49,735 nucleotides of DNA from Chrysochromulina tobinii. Taxonomy: Eukaryota. Made by a program: the position numbers and the translations under genes. The notes under the pieces were generated by a model, which did not search any database, had not been told where the DNA came from, and worked only from the letters and a program-made list of their open reading frames with translations. Positions 30,574 to 43,356 of this stretch are shown here, piece by piece. The first letter of the stretch is position 1. Each line of letters starts with the position of its first letter. The DNA lies in the NCBI GenBank assembly GCA_001275005.1, contig JWZX01003376.1, positions 1 to 49,735 of the forward strand. The letters run 5' to 3'.

Positions 30574-33500
30574 TCAAATCTCGGTATCCATCCCCACCTC
30601 CTCTTCGTCATCGTCGTCGTCCACGGCCGCCATGCGCGGAACCTTGCCAACCGTGCTCGCGGCGTGCCCTCCGCCGGGCTTTATGTGCACCTGCCGTCAT
30701 CAGAGGTCATCAGAGGTCATCAGAGGTCATCAGAGGTCATCAGAGGTCATCAGAGGTCATCACAGCTCCCTCCTCACAGGGCTCCTTGCGCACCTGTCGG
30801 CGCCAGTCCGAGCCCTCTTCTTTCCACGAAAACCAATCTTCCCACTGATCTGAGCCGTCGGGCAGCACGATGCGTGCCTGGAAAGTGCCATCGACGAGGA
30901 CGGCAATCACCTCGGCTGGCACCCACACAGCCGGCGCGTCCTCGCTTGCCGCGACTTCAACCTCCACCTTATCGCCCTCGAGAGGCCACTGCCAGCCGTT
31001 GGGCGGCGGCGATGAGTGCGGCGCGGCAACGAGCTTGGAGCGCTCCTCGCGCCGCCCGCCCGCAGCCTTCGCGCGATAGCCTTTGACGGGCTTCTCGGTC
31101 GGCTGTGGGTTGTCGTCTGGCTCGTCCGGTGCGCTCTTCTTGGCCTTCCGCGGTGACATTTTCTTCGCGATAAGAGCTTCGGCGGGTCCAGCTTCGCCTG
31201 TAGCCTGTTCGACTTCTGGCTCCGGGGCGCTCTCGTCCTTGGCAACCCGCGCGCGCGCTTGTTCCAAACGCTCGATGATCTCGGCCTCGCGACCCCGCAC
31301 GACCCAGCTCTTGGTCGGCACGTCCCAAAACCACTTGGGCTGCGGGCGCAGCTGGCTCGCGTCTACTGTATGGGTTGCTTCAAAGTGAACCGACTTGACC
31401 ACCCATTGGGGCGGCGCGAGCTCCGGAAGCGCCTCGGTGACCAACACGTCCCACCAGCCGCCGATGAACGAGAGTTGCACGGTATCATTCACGCGGAGCT
31501 TGGCCGCCCAGCCAGCGTCAACAGGTGGCAGCGGCAGAGGGCGCACCTTGCGCACAAACTCGAGCTGCTGCAGCCCGGGCATCTGCGCGGTATCGTCCAT
31601 CTCGTCGACGTCGTCCCCGTCCGCGAGGAGTTCTTCATACTCCACGCGTATCTTATCGGGCGCCTTGTGATCAAGTACGCGCGCTTCGAACCAGGCGCCG
31701 AAGTGCTCGGCGCTATCCTGTAGCACCTCCACGCTCATCCCGATCGGCCAATCATACGCCAACCTCTCAAGCGCCTCTTTATTCGCGAGCGCGGCGGCGC
31801 CCTTGCCCTTGGGCGCTGCCGGGACGGCGCCTTTGCCCTTGGCGCCCTTGGCTGTCTTGCCTGCCGAGCCGCCGCCGCTCGCGGCGCTGCCCGTGCTCAC
31901 GCGGCGGCGCTTGGCATCGCTGGCGCCGGGCGTGCCGTCGACGCCGCCCTCGTCGTCGTTACTCTCGTCGTCGCCCGGGGTCATAGTGGTGCTCGCCTTC
32001 CTCGCAGCAGCACGCTTCTGGCCAGCGGACCCGCCGGCGTCGCTCTTTCGCCCCTTGGCTCCCTTCTTGAACCCCCTCTCCTGCAGCTGCTCGTCGATTG
32101 GCGCCTTGATGTCGAGCTGGTATTTAGGGTCGGAGAGCACAGCCAAGTACAGGGTGAGCATCTCGTCGAGCTCCTTGAGCAGCGTGGCCTCGTCGAGGTT
32201 CGCGCCGTACTCGTACATGCGCGAGATGATGCATGCCTTCTCGTAGTCACCCGCGAGCCCGCCGTCAGCGCGCAGGTCGATCTCGCCGTTGGTGTCCCAG
32301 CCTTCGAGCTCGCCTGCCGTCGTGAGCTCGCTGAACTTGGAGCGTACGAAGTTGGCCACATGCTCCAAATGACGCATCGCTGCAGAGGAGCCGAGCACCG
32401 CCTTGAGCTTCGACGTGCCCTGCCCGAGGCACAAGTAGACGGCGGACATGTCGGCTCGGAAGAGGTACTGCATGTACAGGCCCGCCTGGGTGGACTCGAG
32501 CGGGTCAGACACAGCGATCCAGGGCACCTTGGCCCAGCCGCCGCAGCCGCACGAGGAGCGCACAGCGAATGCCTCGCCAACATTGCGCTGCAGCCCGAGC
32601 TCGATCGATTCCATCAGCGTCATCCAGCGGTGCCCTTTCTTGAACGCCTCGTGCTTCTTCCGATAGTCGTACTCGTTCATCATCTTGGCGATGCCGTCGG
32701 CGAGCCGCGTGATGTGCTGGATGTTATTCGCCAGGCACAGCTTGAGCCGCACGCGCACCGAGCCGTTTTTCTCGACCATCGTCCACAGGCTCGCGTCCAC
32801 GACGCGGCTCTTCTCGAGGGCGCGGACCTTGAGCATGTGTCGCATCTTGAAAGCCTTCTCCAGCTCCGCCTTCTCCTTCTCCTTGCGCTCGAGCTCCGCC
32901 TCGAGCGCCGCCTTCTGGGCAGCCTCCTCCTGCTCGGCCCGCCGCTTGCGTTCTTCGCGCTCGGCTTCACGCGGCGCTTTCTCGGCACGGCGGGCGGCCT
33001 TCACCCTCTCCCTCTCCTCACGCTCCATCTCGTGCACATGCATCTTGGCCGCCCGCATCACAAGCTCATCGAGATACTTGGCCACGGTCGCCCTGTCGCG
33101 CTCGTCCCGCACAGCCTGCTTCTTGGCCGCAATCTGCTCTGCTTTCTCACGCTTCTCACGTTCCTTGGCCGCATCCCGCTCGATCTTCTCACGCTCCTTT
33201 GCAACACTCGCTGCCTTGCGCCCACGCTCCTTAGCTTCGCCTGCCTGCCGGCGCAGCTCCGCCAAACGCTCGGGATCCTTACACGCCTTCGCCTCGTGTA
33301 TGAGCGACCGGAGCTCTTCGCGCGCGAGCCGCTCCTCCTCGCACACCGGCTCGCTGCCCGGCGCGCGAAGCCCACCCGGCCCGCCGCTGCCCTCTCCCTT
33401 CTTGGGTGCGGGGGCGCCGGCGGCGTGGTTGCCCTCGAGCCCCGTGATCTCCGACGGGCGCATCCTGTCAAACCCATCCGGATAGAGAGCGACCACAAAC

Positions 33501-36500
33501 GACTCGCGCTCCGCCGCCGCCACCGCGTCCTCGCCACCGGCGCCGCTCGAATGGCTGGCCTCGTTTTGCTTGAGCACACACTTCTGCCGCTTCGTGTTAG
33601 GTCCCCCGAACTTCGGCTTGTCAAGGCAAAATACGCACTCGCCACAGTCGTCCATCGCGAAACCAGGGGCGCTCACGCTACTCGGCGCGGCGCCGCCATC
33701 AGAGTCTTTGGTAGAAGTGGACGCGCCGCCAGACGAAGCGCTCGCCGCCCCGCTGGACACGCCGCCAATCCCGAGGATGGGCAGGTGGTTCAGCAGGTGC
33801 TTGAGGCGGCGCAGCATCGCGCGCGGCTCCACATAGTAGAGACGCGTGGCGCCGCCAGCGCCGCCACCGTTGCCGTCGAGATGGCGCGTGGCGAGATCGT
33901 CGAGATCGACGCGCGTGCCGTCAGGCGCCGTCGCGGGCGTTTCCTCGTCCATCTCCATGGGCACCGCGACCGATTCGTCTGCGACGGGCGACGTGGTACG
34001 CGAAGTCTTGATGGGAAGCTCGACACCTTCCAGAGCGATGTCGGCAAACACGCCCAGCGAGGCATCGGACAATATAGCCGCCCAGTTGGCATACCCGTGC
34101 GTGTGCACGCCCAAGAGCAACGCCGCGTCCTCGGCACTAGTCCACGTGCGGATGGGGACCATGCCTGCGACCGCGGCTGTCGAGGCAACCGGGACTCGAG
34201 ACGGCGCCTCATCCGGCGCCCGAGACGACGCCTCATCCGGCGCCGATGGCGCCGCAGCGGCCACCGCGTCCTCGTCCTCGTCGTCGAGCTCGACCACGTT
34301 AGCATCGCCCTCAGAGTCAGCGGCGGCCGCCTTGGTCTCGGCGAGTGTGAAGACGGGGCGTGCAAACTTGATCGGCAAGAGCGGCGCCACGAAGCCGCTG
34401 GAGGGAGCCGCCTCGACTGCGGCGTGCAGCCGGCGCAGGTCGATGAGCTGCGCGGTGAGCTGCTTCGCCTTCGAGATGATGCGGGTGTCGTACCATGTGG
34501 CCGCGGAGAGCGGCTGCGTGCGGCTCACCTCCTCGGGCACCTCGGGTGCTTCCTCTCCTGCCATCCGGTGCAAGCAGGTACCATCAATTGCAAACGGTTG
34601 CAATCAGTTGCCATCCAGTGCAATCGGGTGCAATCCGGTGCAATCCGGTGCAATCCGGTGCAATCCGGTGCAATCCGTTGCAATCCGTTGCAATCCGTTG
34701 CAATCCGGTGCAATCAGGTGCAATCGGGTGCAATCAGGTGCAATCAGGTGCAATCGGGCGCCCCTCACCCGCACGCAGCGCTTGGCCGGTCGTCACGAAG
34801 AACCAGAGGCGCGCGAGCTTCGCCGGGTCGGGCGGCTGCAGCTCTTGCTTCGCCTTGTCGACAAACTCGAGCACTTCATTGTCATACTCATCAGCGGGGG
34901 GGCGGCAGGCCGTTCGCAGGGCCAGCGCCGCAGTGTACAAGCTCGCGCGCTCCACCTCCTCGACAGTGCGAAAGCCGAGACGAGCATGCAGCCGCTCGGC
35001 GCGCCCAAAGCCGAAGGCGAAGAGGCCCGAGTAGAGAGCGTTGAGCTGCGCGCGGTTCCACTCGTTCGCCTCGCGCTTTCGCTTTGACTCCTTGGCCTCT
35101 TTGGCCGGCGCTTCGTCGCCCCAAGACGGCGCCAAGCGCTGTGGCTCACCGACAGAGCGGCGCGAGCGCCGCCGGCCGTACTCGTCTTCGTAGTCGGCCT
35201 CGTCGTCCTCCTCGCCTCCAGCCTCCTCATCACCTAGGACCTTGGTCCAAAAATCGGGATCGTTGAGGTCGAGCTGTGCCTCGGTTCCGTTGTGCGAGAC
35301 GAACGCGGCCTGCGCAAAGGTGCCCTTGACCTTCGCCTTTTCGTCTTCCTCGGTGCCCGTCTTCTTTGTGGCGCAACGGCCGAGGATCGAGTCGATGTCC
35401 TCTGCCGAGAAGGCAGCGATGCGCTCGTCGTGCTCGTCGGTGAAGAGCTCCTGCGCGCCGTGCTTGAGCAGCCCCTCGAGCTCCGCCGCCCGCTCGGCCT
35501 CCTTGACCTTGCCTCCCTTGGCCTTGACACTCGTGCTACCGCCGCCCTCGTCGTCCGCAGCGCCAGCAGTCGTCTGCGCAGCGTAGTCGCCTCGGCCGAT
35601 GATGGCCTGTTCGAGGCCGAGCTTGAAGTTGGCGCGCTCGTACATGGTCTGCTCGTACGTCCCCTTGGTGATCAGTCGGTAGACGGAGACCACCTTCGTC
35701 TGGCCGATGCGGTGGCAGCGCGCCTGCGCTTGCACGTCGTTCTGCGGGTTCCAGTCGGGGTCGTAGATGATGACCGTGTCGGCGGCCGTCAAGTTGATCC
35801 CCACACCGCCCGCACGTGTGCCGAGCAGGAACAGGAATGTCTTCGACTCCGGGTGCGAGAAGCGATCGATGGCCGCCTGGCGCTTCTCGCCAGTGATCGA
35901 GCCGTCGAGGCGCTCGTACGAGTACCGCGAGAGCTTCAGGTAGTCTTCGAGCAGGTCGAGGAGCATCGTGAATTGGGAGAAGAGGAGGACGCGGTGGCCC
36001 TGCTGCTGCAGCTTGGGCAGCAGCTTGTCGAGCAGCACGAGCTTACCCGACGAGGCTATCAGCCGCTCGAGATAGTCGCTGTCCGCGGCTGTGTGCAGGC
36101 GCTCGGCCTGTATCACGCCCTTGATGAGGAACGGGTGGTTGCAGCAGTGGCGCAGCTGCATCGCAAGGTTGTTGAACGAGGGGCCGTTGACGTGGCTCGC
36201 GCCGCGCAGCAGCAGCGATCGATTCTGCTCGAGCAGCGCGCGGTACGTCTGCTTCTGGTAGTTGGTGATCTCGACGGTCACCAGCGTCTCCTCCATCGGC
36301 GTGATGCCGAGGTCGACGTCGCCCTTGGTGCGCCGAAGCAGGTACGGGCGAAGCCGCTCGGTGAGCGCTTCCACCTGCGCAGCCGAGGTCATGTCGCCAT
36401 ACTGCTCGAGGAACGTGTCGATTGAGGGGAAGCCCTCGGCGTCCAGCAGGTTCAGAATCGACCAGAGCTCGCCCACGTTGTTCTGAAGCGGCGTGCCCGT

Positions 36501-38642
36501 CAGCGCGAGCGTCGGAATCGGCCCAAGCGATTGGAGGGCCGCGAGCGCCTTGCCAAACTTGTTCTTGAGCCGGTGCGCCTCGTCGAGGATGAGGTACGCC
36601 CAGCGCTCCACTTTTCGGAACGTCTCGGCGCACGCGGTGAATGTCTCGTACGTCGTGATGCACACGTCAAAGTTTGGGCGCGCGAGGGTCGCGCCGAAGC
36701 CCTTGGCCTTCGTGAGCGCGCGCGGCTTCGAGGCCCACTCGTAGTCGAGAAGGACCTCGCGCGCGTCCGCGGGGCCATGGAAGAGCACCGCATGCAGCGA
36801 CGTCCAATCGCGCACCTGAGGAGGGAAGCAATCAGTGGTCATCAGTGGTCATCAGTGGAAGAGCACCGCATGCATCGACGTCCCATCGCGCACCTCGCGC
36901 TGCCAGTGCGGCACCGTCGAGAGCGGCACCACGATCAGGTACGGTCCCTTAGCCTTGTGGAACGTGTGCAGGCAGTGCAACAGCGTCGCCGACTGCGCCG
37001 TCTTCCCGAGGCCCATCTCGTCACCCAGGATGACGGATCGCCCTCTGACGTAGTTCCAGCGCATCCACTGCACGCCCGCGCGCTGGTAATCGCGTAGCGT
37101 GCGCCCGCCCTTGAAGCTCATCGGCACGTCAACTTCAGGCGTTGGCGGCTCGGCATCGCTAGCAGCCCTGTTGGCAAGCACCCTCTGACGCTCCTCATAC
37201 GCGGCGATCGCGTCGGCACCAGCGATGCGTGCATACTCCCACGTGCACCCCTCGTACCCGAGGCCTCGCCACTTGACCAGGTAGTAAGTCTCGATGTCGT
37301 CCTCCTCGCCATCCTCGTCGCCCTCGGCCGCCTCCGTCGCGGCCCGCGGCACCATGGCAGCGGGCTCGGCCGAGTCTGACGAATCTTGACGAACTTTGGC
37401 AGCGGGCTCGGCCGAGTCTGACGAATCTTGACGAACTTTGGCAGCGGGCTCGGCCGAGTCTAGCGCCTCCTGCTCCTCGCCCTCCTCGACGAACAGCACG
37501 TCGCCCTCGTCGGCCTCCTCGCCCTCGGCCCCAGCCGACTCGTCCTCGTCGACCCCCTTGGGCTTGCGCTTCTTGGGCGAGGGCGGCGGAGGCGCGGCTG
37601 ACTCACTGTGCACCGCAAGGACGCGCTCCACCTCCATGCACGACAAGTACGGGTCGACGAGGCCGCCATCTTTCTCGCGCTTGCGCAGGAAGTTGGCAAG
37701 GCGCTGCTTGGAGAGGCGGCCGTTCTTCTCGATCTCAGCCGCGCTCAGCCAGAGCGCGTGCACGTGCGCCAGGCCGCGCTCCTTGCACAGGTACTCCTCT
37801 TCGCCCGGCGCGCCGCCCGCCACCATCCTCCCATCGAGGATCTTGTCAATACTGTTGAGCTCGTCCTCGGTGGGCTCGACGTTCTTCGCCAGCCCGAGCG
37901 CCGCCTCTGCGGATGCCTTGCCCTGGCTCTTGAGCTTCTTCTCCTTGGGCCCCTTGGCTACTCGGCCGCCCAGCTCGGGCGCCAGCCGATTGATCGCCTC
38001 GAGCTTGAGCTTGCACGTTTTGTGGCGCTTATTCTCGCCGCCAAATTTGGGCTTGTCGCGGCAGTTGATGCATGTGCCGCAGTCGAGCCGCGCGTTGATC
38101 TCCTGCTGGGCGGAGCGGGCCGCCTCGCTCTTGCCAGCCGGTCGATTGGTGGCCGAAGCACAGCTCGGGCAAAACCAGTCACCCTCGGGCACGGAAGCCA
38201 GCGGCGGCGTCAGGCATTGCGTGTGGAACGCCTTCGGGCACGCGTCGCAGAGGAGCAGCTCGTTGCCTTCGATCCACGACTCGACGCCACACACCTCACA
38301 CGTCTCGCCTCTATCTTCCTCCTTGTCCTCCTGAAATAAATCGTCCTCGTCCTTCTCGACATAGGACTTGCCGCCACGCGTCGGGCGCACCGAGCGCCCG
38401 GAGCGCCCGCCACCCCCTCCAGCGCCTCCCTTGTCGTCCGGATGCAACGCATCGAGCAGCGCCGATGCCTCTCTGAGAGCCTGAGCCGCCGCCGCCTCTT
38501 CATCTGCCGGCGCCACCATGTCCATGGCGGCGTCCTCATCGTCGAGCCGCTGGCGCTTGACCACGGAGGCCCCCTTGTCGTCGAGGCCGAGGGCTTCGGG
38601 CGGGTTTGAAGCCAACGGATGTCGCTTGTTCGCGCTGCTCAT
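30574..38642 (-). CDS. CHD-type SNF2 chromatin remodeller (~2558 aa): PHD, CXXC, 2 chromodomains, SNF2 ATPase, SANT/SLIDE-like, CXXC, coiled coil, McrB-N (DUF3578)-like, Agenet/Tudor; introns 36816-36893, 34558-34768 and 30691-30793
   Basis: [38 protein letters not shown] and [26 protein letters not shown]...[12 protein letters not shown]...WFCPSC. The three GT..CAG introns join ORFs 36852-38642, 34734-36842 and 30740-34603 plus a last exon ending ...GMDTEI* into a frame-consistent 7677-nt CDS. Confidence 0.9.
30697..30763. repeat. 10-bp tandem repeat (TCATCAGAGG)n, intronic
   Basis: About six perfect copies inside intron 30691-30793. Confidence 0.9.
34590..34757. repeat. 10-bp tandem repeat (CAATCCGGTG-like)n, intronic
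   Basis: About 16 degenerate copies inside intron 34558-34768. Confidence 0.9.
37355..37461. repeat. 42-bp in-frame tandem repeat (2.5 copies) in the CHD chromodomain region
   Basis: Encodes [14 protein letters not shown] twice plus DSAEPAA. Confidence 0.85.
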
Positions 38643-38876
38643 GTCGCTGGTACTCGTTCGCCTCGGTGGTGTTCGCTTTGCGCGCGCGAAGGTGCGCCGC
38701 AGCAGCGCGCTATGAAAACGCGGTGGAAGTCATGGAATTCGTCTCCACACACCTCCCCTCCTCGGCTTCAATTGATGAAACTGCACAAGGGAAAAACGTC
38801 GTCGCGGGCACGACAGAGCGTCAATGTAACTCCCAAGCTACTTGACATGTAACAAGCCTTTTCACCACCTTCGTCC

Positions 38877-41800
38877 ATGGCGGCGTCCTCATCGTCTAGA
38901 CCACAATACAGCCAGGCGTCGAGCCTCGTGTTTTGCGTCGACTGCCTCGTGTGGGCGAGGCTGCGCGGCTTCCCTGCATGGCCGTCGCAAGTCCTATCAA
39001 TGCCAAGCGACACCAGCAAACCTAAGGCCCGCATGGAGGTCATCTTCCTCGGGACGCACGACAAGTCGTTCGTAAGCGTGGCCGATGCAGCTCCGTTTGA
39101 CCCCGCCGACCGCGAGACCGGGGATCCGCGCTTCATCCCTCCCAAGAAACCGTCGCTGCGCGCCTCTTTTGAAGCCGCGCTCGCGGAAGCGGAGGAATTG
39201 CTCAAGCCGCCGCCACCACCACCGAAAGTCAAGAGCAAGGCGGCCAAGTCGAAGAGCAAGTCGGCCGTCGATCCGCAAGCCCAGGCCGAGCTCGACCGAC
39301 TATCCGCGTATGTCGAGGCACGCGGCGGCACGAGCGACATGCTCGAAGGGTGGAATTGCATCCCGAGCAACCGCACTGGGCGAAAGCCGGGCGAGCCCAG
39401 GGTAGACGTGCAGTACATTGAGCCGGACGGCAACAAGCATCGCTCGCGCAAGGCGGTGGCACGGGCGCTCGGCCTGCTCGACGACGACGAGGAGGAGGAG
39501 GCAGAGCCTCAGGAGGAGGAGGCAGGGCCGCAGCCGACGAGTGAATCGGCCCAGCTAGAGCCGTCGGAGCCTGTGCGCCGCAGCAGCCGTCCCGTCGTGC
39601 CTCTCGCGCGCTTCGGTGTGGACGACGACGACAACGAAGAGGAGTTTAGCGCGCGGTCCGCAAAGGCCGCCGCGCCGACCGCGCTGCCGGCCGGCAGTGG
39701 CGGTGAAGGCAGCCTAAAGCGCGGCGGGCGGGTGCGTTCTTCGCTAACGATGACGCGCCGGAGTCGTTCAGAGCTGCCGCCGCTGCGCAACACGGAGGCG
39801 CGTGCGATTGACCATTACGGATTCGCGGAGGTGCCGTCGATGCTGTCGGCGGACCTGTGCAAGCTGATCGCGGCCGAGCCGATGGATGATGGGGAGGGTA
39901 TCTCGAACGCCTTCCAGAAATCCCTCGAGGGTCCACTCCTCGCAGAATGCGAGAAGGCCCTCGGTGCCTCTTCAGCGGTCGCCGACGCCATCGAGGCCGC
40001 CTTTGGCGTTCGGCGCTTCGCAGTGCGTACAATCAAGATCCTGATGACCGAATTCTGCGCCGCGCCGCAGATCCCGCACGCGGACGACTTTTGCAACCGC
40101 GAGCTCTTCGGCATCGCCCATTTGCTGCCCAACCAGCCCCAGACTGAATGCCTGCCGTACAAGCATGACGCGAACTACCCGACGGGCGTGGCCGCCGAGT
40201 GCGACGCATGCGGTCGGTGGCTGCCGCTGCCGGACAAGATTGCACGCCGGCGCGCGCACTTGGTGAGCTTCACATGTCGGGACGCCAATCGATGTTGCAT
40301 CGGGGAGCCGCCCACCTCGGCGCCCGCGTCCTCCCTCGCGGCCGCCGCGTCTTCGGTCCAGCTCTCGCCGCACTCGCCCACCGCTCGACGCGGGCGAGGC
40401 GGCGACGACGACGATGAGGGTCTCGTGCCGTCGCCTTCGGCGTCCACCAACGTAGCCGAGGTTGGTGGCGGCGGCGGCGGCATGAGCCCGCCGCCATGCA
40501 AGCGGATCCAGCCGGGCGATCGCGTCCAGGGCAAGTACCAGGGGCAGATAGGTGGTCTGAACTGGTTCGACGGCGAGGTGAGGGCGGTGCACGAGGACGG
40601 CACGTGCGATCTGCACTATGACGATGGCGACTACGAGGAGCGCGTGGCACCAAGTTTCGTCAAGGTGGTCGCCTCTGCTATGGAGGAGACCAGGGAGCGG
40701 GAGGAGGTGGAGGAGATGTCGGAGATTGATGCGGCCGAGGAGGCGCGCCTACGAGCCATCGACGATGAGTTTGCCATCGACGTGCTCAACGCCTTTGGCG
40801 AGCTGCTCTACCGCCCCGCCAACGTCATCGACCGCATGCAGCCTATCGGAGCCCCTCCAAGAGCAGGAGATGGCATCGTGGCGCTGCCGACGCTCGTGCA
40901 CCGCGGGCCGGGCGGCAACGACGCGGGCGCGATGGAGCGCAGCGTACTCTTCTTCACCATCGTGCCTCTCTTTGACGACGACGACGGCTTCGAAGACACG
41001 ATTGGCCAATATGATCCAGACGCGCAGATCCACGCGGGCTGGCTGATCTGGCGAACAGGCGCCCTGCTGGGTGACGCCCGGATCGAGCGCATTATGGACG
41101 CGTACGGACAGCTAGGCTTCGAGCTGCGCGCCTTTGGCAAGGGCGCGAAGCTCCTCTTCAAGACAGATAATGGCGAGGCCGCGGCCAAGCCCAAGCGGCG
41201 GCGCCTCACCAAAAAGGGTGCCGACGCGGCTGCTGCTTCTGCTTCTGCGGCTGCTGCTGCTGACAGCAAGCACAAGCCCAAGGGGAAGCCCGGGAGTCGC
41301 AGCGGCCCCTCGGGCCGCACTGGGCGGCGCAAGCCGAAGTACGAGGTGGACGACGATGAAGACGAAGAGGACAAGGACGAGGAGGTGGAGGAGTCCCTTC
41401 GCGCTAGGCCGGTCAATTCCAAGGTAGACGCGGTCGAGCCGGGCGCAGACACGCGGAGCGCGAAGGCCGAGGCGAAGGTGCACGCGGCCGCCGCCAAGAA
41501 GGCTACCGCCGCCGAGGACATGGCGCTCGGCAAGGCGCTCGGCAAGGCCAAGGCCAAGACCGACGCCTCGCATGAAGTGAAGATGGACGCCGATGGCGGC
41601 AGCGGCGGCGGCGGCGGCGGCGGCGAGTCGAGCCAGCATTGGAAGTGGACGAGCCTTGGCGTCGGCGACTCTGTGGAAGATACGAGCGCGGCGGACTGCG
41701 AGGGTGTGGTTGGCACTGCTGCTGAGGGCGCAGCAGATGGCTTGGGGCGTCAAGTGGACGCCCCTACATTCGCCCCTGCAGCGTCCGAACGCTCTTCGTC

Positions 41801-42395
41801 GGCGCCGCGTCCTCGCCCCTTTGTGTGCCGCTACCCGGGCTGTGGTAAGGAATACGTCAACCTCGATGGCTACCGGCGGCACGCGAATAACTCAGGCCAT
41901 GGGTACCTGAACCCACGCAAAGCTGGCGCATCGACAGCACAGGGATCTGCTGCGCCCGACGAATACACCGTATCCGAGACGATGATGGGGCCAGCGATGA
42001 TGGCAGTGCGAGCGCCACAGCCACCATCAGCCCAGCTTCGGACGGAAGTGCAGATGGAAGAGTCCGACGGAACGAACCTGGTCGCCAAGGCCGAAGCCGA
42101 GCTCAGGGCAGCGATGGCTGCGGGCGACCCCGTGCGAATTAAGGCCGCGATCGCCCGTGCCTCCGCGACACTGGCCAAGATGACCGCCCGCGGCAGCCAC
42201 GAGGTCGCCCAGCACCAGGTCAGCCAGCACCAGGTCGGCCAGCACGGTGCCGATGGCCAGCATATGCCCGAGATCGCGTATCCGATGGCCTATCCGATGG
42301 CCTATCCGATGGCCTACCCTTCGGAACTCGAGAGTGCATGGCACCATTACGGTGGCATGATGAGCGTGCCAGAGGGTTGTGGGATAATGGATTAA
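38877..42395 (+). CDS. Multidomain chromatin protein: PWWP, MBD-like, 2OG-Fe(II) dioxygenase (PhyH-like) with inserted zf-CW-like and Tudor domains, and a C2H2 finger
   Basis: PWWP: VWARLRGFPAWP. MBD-like: LEGW..R..VDVQYIEPDGNKHRSRKAVARAL. Dioxygenase: QIPHAD / LVHRG / ERSVLFF. CW-like: ECDACGRWLPLP..FTC. Tudor: PGDRVQGK..WFDGEV..DLHYDDGDYE. C2H2: FVCRYPGCGKEY..H..H. Confidence 0.8.
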   Translation: MAASSSSRPQYSQASSLVFCVDCLVWARLRGFPAWPSQVLSMPSDTSKPKARMEVIFLGTHDKSFVSVADAAPFDPADRETGDPRFIPPKKPSLRASFEAALAEAEELLKPPPPPPKVKSKAAKSKSKSAVDPQAQAELDRLSAYVEARGGTSDMLEGWNCIPSNRTGRKPGEPRVDVQYIEPDGNKHRSRKAVARALGLLDDDEEEEAEPQEEEAGPQPTSESAQLEPSEPVRRSSRPVVPLARFGVDDDDNEEEFSARSAKAAAPTALPAGSGGEGSLKRGGRVRSSLTMTRRSRSELPPLRNTEARAIDHYGFAEVPSMLSADLCKLIAAEPMDDGEGISNAFQKSLEGPLLAECEKALGASSAVADAIEAAFGVRRFAVRTIKILMTEFCAAPQIPHADDFCNRELFGIAHLLPNQPQTECLPYKHDANYPTGVAAECDACGRWLPLPDKIARRRAHLVSFTCRDANRCCIGEPPTSAPASSLAAAASSVQLSPHSPTARRGRGGDDDDEGLVPSPSASTNVAEVGGGGGGMSPPPCKRIQPGDRVQGKYQGQIGGLNWFDGEVRAVHEDGTCDLHYDDGDYEERVAPSFVKVVASAMEETREREEVEEMSEIDAAEEARLRAIDDEFAIDVLNAFGELLYRPANVIDRMQPIGAPPRAGDGIVALPTLVHRGPGGNDAGAMERSVLFFTIVPLFDDDDGFEDTIGQYDPDAQIHAGWLIWRTGALLGDARIERIMDAYGQLGFELRAFGKGAKLLFKTDNGEAAAKPKRRRLTKKGADAAAASASAAAAADSKHKPKGKPGSRSGPSGRTGRRKPKYEVDDDEDEEDKDEEVEESLRARPVNSKVDAVEPGADTRSAKAEAKVHAAAAKKATAAEDMALGKALGKAKAKTDASHEVKMDADGGSGGGGGGGESSQHWKWTSLGVGDSVEDTSAADCEGVVGTAAEGAADGLGRQVDAPTFAPAASERSSSAPRPRPFVCRYPGCGKEYVNLDGYRRHANNSGHGYLNPRKAGASTAQGSAAPDEYTVSETMMGPAMMAVRAPQPPSAQLRTEVQMEESDGTNLVAKAEAELRAAMAAGDPVRIKAAIARASATLAKMTARGSHEVAQHQVSQHQVGQHGADGQHMPEIAYPMAYPMAYPMAYPSELESAWHHYGGMMSVPEGCGIMD

Positions 42396-43356
42396 TGGTG
42401 CCTCAGCAACTGAGAGATGTGGGGGAGCTGGAGCCTGGACGTGTGGAGAGTTTGGACCTCGGTACATACCGATACCATACTCTATAGGACTCTATAGCGA
42501 CAATTTATCGGGTCGAGACTCGAGTTGAGCGCACCATTTTATTGTCGAGTGAGCTCCACAGTGGCCCGCGGCGCGTACGGGTCACTCGCTAAACTCGCGG
42601 CTCGCCGGGGGCTCGGAGAATTCGCGGACCTGTCACCGGTGTCGGGTACGCGACCTAGTTGTCGGACCGTTCCACAAAGCACAATCCGACAAGCGACATG
42701 GTCATTGCATCATACAATGCGCACAATCTTAAGCACAATCCTGAATCCAGCACAAGGCAATAGCGAGGAACACTCTGGTCTCTGCAACTGCCTTTATGCT
42801 TTAATTGAGTAACTCCTTACCACGCCCAGTGAGGTGTGTTGGAGGAGCCGTCTAACCGTCTTATTAATCTGACTACATGTATGTGAATCTCTACACAGTG
42901 CATCTTTCAAATCAGAATCTCCAACACTTTTGTCACGAATCCCGGCTACCACGTAGGAACTCCTACACGCAACACGGGACCTATACCAGCTGTCACGGCG
43001 GGTCGACGCCCGCGTCACGGCTCACGCAATCGGTCCCAATCGGCGTCACGACTCACACGATTGGTCGATTCACGTCCGAGGTGGACTTGATCGGCTCCGC
43101 GGCCCGACGATGTAGAACGGCAAAAATGTTGTCAACCCACAGGTCGAAGACGGCCTTTGCCACCGTCGCGTACTTGGGCTGCCGCGAGGGCGGTGAAAAC
43201 ATCTCCGAGCAGCGCGGGCGGATTGCATTCATTAGTTCCCTATTCCTAAAAGGGGGTACCGGTAAACCGGTAGGGTACGTCTCTATTCGGTGTTCGTGCG
43301 TTCCTGCGCCTGCGCGGTGGTTGCTGGTTGCCAAGCAACTCACCGACGCCTGTCAT

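Follow-up and report, generated by a model that had tools for sequence, protein, structure and literature searches.

A PhyH-type dioxygenase family of haptophytes and centric diatoms with repeatedly acquired chromatin modules

The locus and its transcript

The window analysed here is a 49,735-nucleotide stretch of Chrysochromulina tobinii DNA (contig JWZX01003376.1). Its forward strand carries a single intronless open reading frame (ORF), which starts at an ATG with an in-frame stop codon upstream of it and encodes a protein of 1172 amino acids (Table 1). An earlier note on this DNA, made from the sequence alone, had proposed that the protein is a 2-oxoglutarate (2OG)- and Fe(II)-dependent dioxygenase fused to chromatin readers; it placed the start of the gene correctly, whereas its end (41960) falls 435 bases short of the stop codon. 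We report here that the dioxygenase domain belongs to a real, expressed PhyH-type family for which there is no Pfam model, and that chromatin modules have been added to this family again and again.

RNA contigs from four studies (X12, X15, X16, and X18, the latter scarcely including the gene) were compared with the window. Their ends lie at 38848-38853 on the 5' side and at 42520-42529 on the 3' side, and the DNA run continues. Across 38848-41585, contig X15 follows the window without a single difference or gap, so that the PWWP domain, the MBD-like domain, both catalytic halves, and the Tudor-like module are carried by one unspliced transcript. These libraries contain real mRNA, as two introns of the neighbouring gene are spliced in them. 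A chimeric or misassembled gene is ruled out by the RNA and DNA contigs. At position 41770, all three covering runs show A where the window shows T (F965Y, outside any domain); Tyr is also encoded at locus L006.

Table 1. Coordinates of the features discussed in the text (window positions)
Feature	Position	Strand	Evidence
CHD-type remodeler gene	30740..38642	-	
Whole ORF, 1172 aa, transcribed	38877..42395	+	ORF call, RNA contigs
PWWP domain, residues 24-109	38946..39203	+	Pfam E 2.8e-10, HDGF alignment
MBD-like domain, residues 150-203; R166, D177, R189 kept	39324..39485	+	PDB matches, leave-one-out profile
Dioxygenase N-terminal half: PLRN, GF.E helix, ISNA, strands I-IV with Q398, H401, D403, D404, Q420, T423	39777..40169	+	Profile, model, alignment
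HxD motif (predicted iron-binding), H401 and D403	40077..40085	+	50/50 in alignment A3
CW-like Cys4 finger (C442, C445, C467, C474) within strand IV-V insert; A439 at first cage site	40200..40298	+	Pfam on isolated piece, alignment, DSSP strand order of model
Tudor-like module, lineage-specific insert, dispersed genome repeat	40509..40667	+	Repeat depth, leave-one-out profile
Dioxygenase C-terminal half: strands V-VIII, H675 (40899), R688 (40938), acidic loop, Y712-Q717-H719, terminal helices	40764..41168	+	Profile, model, alignment
ERSVLFF strand	40935..40955	+	
C2H2 zinc finger, single, residues 982-1007	41820..41897	+	WT1 match E 7.6e-5
Tandem YPMA short repeats	42273..42320		

A PhyH-type dioxygenase domain

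Standard profile searches do not recognize the catalytic domain. No dioxygenase model of Pfam matches the window protein (E<=0.1 for the whole protein, E<=10 for the two halves), NCBIfam gives no match for seven of eight family proteins and one irrelevant match for the eighth, and a phmmer search of the PDB with the window protein returns reader domains only, while a six-sequence profile returns no dioxygenase. The gathering score of Pfam PhyH (22 bits) is not reached by the best relatives (20.1 and 16.2 bits). A profile built from 50 family sequences matches AndA (E 2.1e-5, in two pieces), an alignment in which QIPHADD falls on QRPHRDD while H675 and R688 correspond to the distal His and to the strand-8 Arg, respectively. 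The HxD motif, the distal His, and the ERSVLFF strand are all located where the earlier note had placed them.

That note had also called for a structural check of the double-stranded beta-helix (DSBH) fold. AlphaFold models contain this fold both in the core of the window protein (predicted local distance difference test, pLDDT, of 78, low only in the linker and the Tudor-like module) and in a compact relative, P0060 (pLDDT 90). The best fold matches are the same for both models: AsqJ (Z 14.8, root-mean-square deviation (rmsd) 2.9 over 190 aligned residues), EasH (14.4), AndA (13.9), and TlxJ (13.7) for the window core, and AsqJ (Z 16.9, rmsd 2.7 over 183 aligned residues), EasH (16.5), AndA (16.2), and TlxJ (16.1) for P0060. 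Foldseek supports the match to a PhyH-type fold (E 1.5e-8), and the top match in the ESM Atlas is a PhyH cluster (0.95); bacterial and giant-virus look-alikes found there at 0.91 share few features. The DSBH fold is confidently modelled, and its motifs are not due to chance, as they lie on the matching strands of the predicted fold and align with the HxD, His, and Arg of AndA.

In an alignment of 50 family sequences (A3), H401 and D403 are present in all rows and H675 in 47 of 49, although most rows were picked for these motifs (both were present in 42 of 171 proteins, the remainder being largely fragments). R688 (47/48) and T423 (49/50) were not used as selection criteria, nor were Q398, Q420, and the four Cys of the finger. 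The predicted metal and 2OG ligands are intact, and the proposed assignment to PhyH-like 2OG-Fe(II) dioxygenases is supported. A catalytically idle scaffold that binds 2OG and Fe or chromatin might be considered, as a subunit of the trypanosome RNA-editing complex RESC (8fnc_14, which we take to be of an inactive type) is found among the fold matches (Z 11.5). However, the HxD/H/R set is kept complete from haptophytes to diatoms at ~31-35% identity, and we regard such an idle protein as very improbable.

Relationships with known 2OG-Fe(II) families

The window family shares with the PhyH type (AsqJ, EasH, AndA, TlxI/J, SnoK, KanJ, and PHYHD1; PF05721) the DSBH, the Q-x-P-H-x-D-D and GD-x6-8-H-x-G motifs, the strand-8 Arg, and an N-terminal G-F/C-V helix. 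It differs from it by low identity (12-18%, with no Pfam PhyH match at E<=10 for the window protein), by a Cys4 finger and helices that occupy the strand IV-V insert, by extra C-terminal helices, and by reader fusions. A remote relative without the finger, P0181, does match Pfam PhyH (E 8.7e-4); together with P0167 and P0173, which likewise have the catalytic motifs and no Cys4 finger, it bridges the family to Pfam PhyH.

The motifs of the protein had been described as unlike those of JmjC, TET/JBP, and AlkB, and our comparisons uphold this view. In one study, an Arg on strand 8 is given as a mark of the classical 2OG-Fe superfamily and not of JmjC, KDM4 is described as building a Zn site from the insert between strands 4 and 5, and JmjC demethylases as using the same set of readers (PMC2938197). 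The location of R688 on strand 8 thus argues against JmjC; strand IV carries T423 rather than the basic 2OG ligand. JmjC demethylases (KDM2, KDM4, and Dictyostelium CBF) have in common with the window family the 2OG/Fe chemistry and the reader set (Tudor, C2H2, MBD, CXXC, ZZ, and PWWP/BMB), and the strand 4-5 insert holds predicted Zn ligands, a trait of KDM4 as well. In contrast, the anchor of 2OG is on strand 8 instead of strand 4, there is no JmjC match in Pfam, and no JmjC chain is found among the best 50 fold matches listed for either the window core or P0060.

Similarities to TET/JBP and CMD1 include a classical HxD...H...R oxygenase, a Zn module, a large variable catalytic insert, and CXXC fusions; a Zn module, a large variable insert, and fusion to CXXC are characteristic of TET. 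Nevertheless, the catalytic half of the window protein is acidic, unlike that of TET/JBP, Pfam Tet_JBP does not match (E<=0.1 for the whole protein, E<=10 for the halves), and neither TET nor NgTET1 is present among the best 50 fold matches listed. Finally, the AlkB signature is RxxxxxR on strand 8. The residue six positions after R688 is T694, and no Arg occupies this position in the aligned rows inspected. AlkB homologues share 2OG-Fe oxidative chemistry with the family and rank 44th-50th among the fold matches (Z 9.5-10.9; ALKBH3 49th, Z 9.5, for the window model), ALKBH3/6 being ~5-6 Z units below AsqJ over the two models.

A Cys4 finger embedded in the enzyme

Judging from the modelled secondary structure, the strand IV-V insert is filled by the Cys4 finger, a variable linker, and two helices. 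Of the 50 aligned sequences, 47 contain the finger, which is thus integral to the enzyme; its Cys residues are conserved in 48/48 (C442), 47/47 (C445), 47/48 (C467), and 45/47 (C474) sequences. It matches Pfam CW (E 0.0033 for the isolated piece of the window protein, 0.0006-0.06 in several members). The CW domain of MORC3 has Trp at both cage positions, and the Trp of W-x-x-C and of K-W-R are the two cage Trp of CW methyl-lysine readers. In the family, position 439 is Trp in only four of 47 sequences (Ala in the window) and position 448 in 17 of 47. The suggestion that a CW domain reads methyl-lysine here is not supported: because the first cage Trp is missing in 43 of 47 sequences, the embedded finger is probably not a methyl-lysine reader. 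Other finger residues are conserved (D453, R457 in 46/48, H461 in 39/48), and the median net charge is just +1. The finger would be a built-in piece of substrate recognition.

One clade (P0044, P0059, P0062, and P0070) has Trp at the first cage site and Tyr or Phe at the second, and the finger of these proteins may retain methyl-lysine binding. P0259 carries an additional, canonical CW domain (E 7.5e-14) beside the embedded finger.

Family distribution and reader fusions

At E<=0.001, searches with the dioxygenase domain returned 233 representatives, 150 of which are listed, and 42 metagenomic loci were obtained from 163 pattern matches. Named members come from a haptophyte (Phaeocystis cordata) and from centric diatoms (Skeletonema menzelii, Discostella pseudostelligera, Thalassiosira exigua, and Cyclostephanos tholiformis). 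Scans that detect close relatives only gave no viral member (0 of 21 pattern matches in viral contigs) and no prokaryotic one (0 of 33 and 0 of 222 in prokaryote genomes). In one diatom-like genome, two dioxygenase paralogues are ~10 kb apart (L029 with L038 on one contig, and L030 with L040 on one contig), with an intron in the finger.

The survey of fusions started from 191 sequences that contain the first motif. Both motifs are present in 119 of them; these form 52 clusters at 80% identity, 50 of which were scanned with Pfam. Readers (PWWP, MBD, CXXC, canonical CW, and Tudor-type domains at E<=0.02, the embedded finger being excluded) occur in 12 of the 50 clusters, versus none of 30 flanking ORFs (30 of 39 ORFs after exclusion of nine near-duplicates; some redundancy stays). 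The proposed link between the enzyme and chromatin modules is thus reinforced at the family level. One of the 12, P0034, failed with leave-one-out profiles (E 0.78) and is counted solely via Pfam Tudor-knot (E 0.015). Such profiles added two Tudor domains, and chromo-barrel domains called by eye in P0064 and P0067 were rejected by them (E 0.94 and 2).

The positions of the readers vary: MBD precedes, follows, or interrupts the dioxygenase domain, CXXC occurs to one side of it or the other, and Tudor takes four different positions. Moreover, reader fusions are scattered across separate branches of the tree, which was obtained by a quick IQ-TREE search. Varied positions and separate branches point to independent fusions, and such independent gains of chromatin modules, which we consider likely, are the main evidence for a role in chromatin. 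Patches resembling nuclear localization signals are present in 39 of 52 family sequences and 21 of 41 control ORFs, a difference too weak for use.

Reader modules of the window protein

The PWWP domain proposed in the earlier note is well above the Pfam cut-off (41 bits versus 25.6) and matches HDGF and LEDGF in the PDB (phmmer E 1.5e-7). F32, W35, and F57 align opposite Tyr, Trp, and Phe of HDGF, at positions that we take to form the aromatic methyl-lysine cage.

The MBD-like domain is a weaker call, as it lies below the Pfam cut-off (E 0.0025 on the isolated piece, 17.8 bits versus 21). All 12 of its PDB matches at E<=10 are MBD2, MBD3, or MBD4 (best E 0.14), and a leave-one-out profile of the family MBDs recovers it with E 2.4e-11. 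Two Arg, an Asp, and a Tyr are the residues of the methyl-CpG site. The case for a methyl-CpG reader is reduced, because the Tyr of the DVY motif of MBD2/4 is replaced by Q179 and because neither the first Arg nor the Asp is kept in two of three close relatives.

The Tudor-like module is similarly recovered by a leave-one-out profile (E 8.6e-13); its best Pfam E-value is 0.28, and the PDB search gave no Tudor match. Modules 79% identical to it carry Pfam Tudor_5, one of them in a named Chrysochromulina protein. The module is also a repeat of this genome, as summed contig depth reaches up to 1388 per bin versus 69, and 14 of 21 matches cover little outside the module (three were inspected), their hosts being otherwise unrelated proteins. 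The window Tudor is a lineage-specific repeat, absent from the equivalent site in other family clusters, and the case for it as a core part of the enzyme is weakened. Copies of this repeat sit in unrelated proteins (P0008-P0021), including AP2, RING, UBA, and homeobox proteins. Two sequences close to the window protein, P0002 (97% identical) and P0003 (88%), diverge at the Tudor into one shared alternative tail, with loss of the distal His, the Arg, and the distal half; this switch may reflect either an allele that truly recombined or an incorrect assembly join at the repeat.

A C2H2 finger follows the dioxygenase domain, as reported before; it is not seen in P0005, the nearest full-length relative. 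The YPMA repeats near the C-terminus come after a predicted helical segment and are not seen in relatives.

The neighbouring gene

The gene is arranged head-to-head with a gene encoding a CHD-type remodeler, with 235 bases between the two start codons. This remodeler comprises a PHD finger, a CXXC domain, two chromodomains, a SNF2 domain, a second CXXC domain, and an Agenet/Tudor domain. It also matches, far over the cut-off, Pfam MrcB_N (E 2.4e-33), a model named for the N-terminus of bacterial McrB, for which no phmmer match was found in the PDB at E<=1. The N-terminus of McrB binds modified cytosines. RNA joints at 36806/36885 and 34556/34768 delimit two introns.

Mechanism and substrate

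From its appended domains, targeting of the window protein to chromatin appears quite probable. Tentatively, and at somewhat less than even confidence, we favour a tethered PhyH-type hydroxylase that would oxidise a side chain on histones or some other chromatin protein. Fold and motif alignment suggest that H401, D403, and H675 would bind Fe(II) and that R688 with T423 would anchor 2OG. Reaction with O2 would generate an Fe(IV)=O species able to hydroxylate a C-H bond; if the target carbon is an N-methyl, demethylation with release of formaldehyde would follow, and otherwise a stable hydroxyl mark would result. The PWWP, MBD-like, and Tudor modules would tether the enzyme to nucleosomes, the outer readers setting only the address and being swapped among lineages. 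In the window protein, the catalytic half and the loop following strand VIII each have a net charge of -8, calculated from sequence (family medians -4 and -1, respectively), which would fit basic histone tails better than DNA; together with the parallel to the Zn site of KDM4, this acidity makes us lean to a basic protein substrate.

Several observations weigh against this reading. No reader is detected by Pfam in 38 of the 50 clusters, many of which are fragments, although some seem to be complete enzymes of 330 aa; four of the 12 reader-positive clusters are close kin (the PWWP+MBD clade); and readers are attached freely to many proteins of these algae. The net charge of the N-terminal half ranges from -11 to +8 across the family. 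As MBD and CXXC bind DNA, and as the reader set is common to JmjC and TET, readers do not separate histone from DNA substrates. Lastly, all top fold matches are small-molecule enzymes, namely oxygenases of metabolites and natural products, and PHYHD1-type demethylases, the only characterised demethylases of PhyH type in the literature cited here, act on free 2'-O-methyl nucleosides and not on RNA or nucleotides (PMC12709175).

These last two points would agree with a small-molecule enzyme, which might salvage methylated nucleosides or amino acids in free form or serve as a nuclear metabolite sensor, and whose readers would park it or be incidental; so would the compact members that lack readers (P0059, P0060, and P0068). 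However, the appended domains are of nuclear type (readers, C2H2, ZZ, RanBP-type and WRKY19-type fingers, and UBA), no metabolic partner domain was detected in the Pfam scans of the family clusters, and four distinct proteins retain PWWP and MBD together although their cores share just ~64-66% identity. We consider this explanation unlikely.

The enzyme could instead be a chromatin-tethered oxidase of bases in DNA or nascent RNA, which would oxidise the methyl carried by 5-methylcytosine, thymine, or N6-methyladenine, with a TET-like role on a PhyH scaffold and the Arg and His of the finger contacting the backbone. The gains of MBD at three positions and of CXXC at two, the conservation of R457 and H461, and the head-to-head CHD gene with its CXXC and MrcB_N domains are consistent with such a role, as is CG methylation by DNMT5 in haptophytes and diatoms (PMC9998398). 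On the other hand, the catalytic half is acidic and the finger nearly neutral, ALKBH3 is a poorer fold match than AsqJ (Z 9.5 versus 14.8), PHYHD1-type enzymes refuse polymeric nucleic acid (PMC12709175), the methyl-reading residues of MBD are unconserved in close relatives, and no conservation of the linkage with the CHD gene was observed. We rate a base oxidase as somewhat unlikely.

Significance

The novelty of the family is provisional, because two surveys of 2OG-Fe families by Iyer and Aravind, of 2009 (Cell Cycle) and 2013 (NAR), may overlap with it; the former reportedly describes an algal family with varied architectures. Literature searches, which covered passages of PMC4738411, PMC2938197, PMC3417536, PMC9998398, PMC12344493, PMC11065753, PMC13489965, and PMC12709175, turned up no description of it, and the words 'dioxygenase', 'PhyH', and '2OG' do not occur in the main text of bioRxiv 2021.11.30.470311.

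The joining of chromatin-binding modules to a predicted PhyH-type oxidase likely sets apart a distinct family of haptophyte and diatom enzymes that modify chromatin. A broader proposal, to which we give a chance only slightly short of even, is that a PhyH-type oxygenase was recruited in haptophytes and centric diatoms as an independent class of epigenetic erasers or writers beside LSD1, JmjC, TET/JBP, and AlkB; its repurposed CW finger would engage nucleosomes, and the enzyme would remove methyl marks from histones or DNA or lay down an unrecorded hydroxyl mark. In the literature cited here, the known 2OG-dependent chromatin modifiers are JmjC, TET/JBP, and AlkB, and the PhyH scaffold is mainly known for small-molecule chemistry; if the proposal is true, the PhyH type would represent another route to the same job. 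The family is amenable to direct testing, with natural compact members of 330 aa and genes in named centric diatoms, and it occurs in two major groups of phytoplankton in which DNA methylation depends on DNMT5 and little is known of the erasers.

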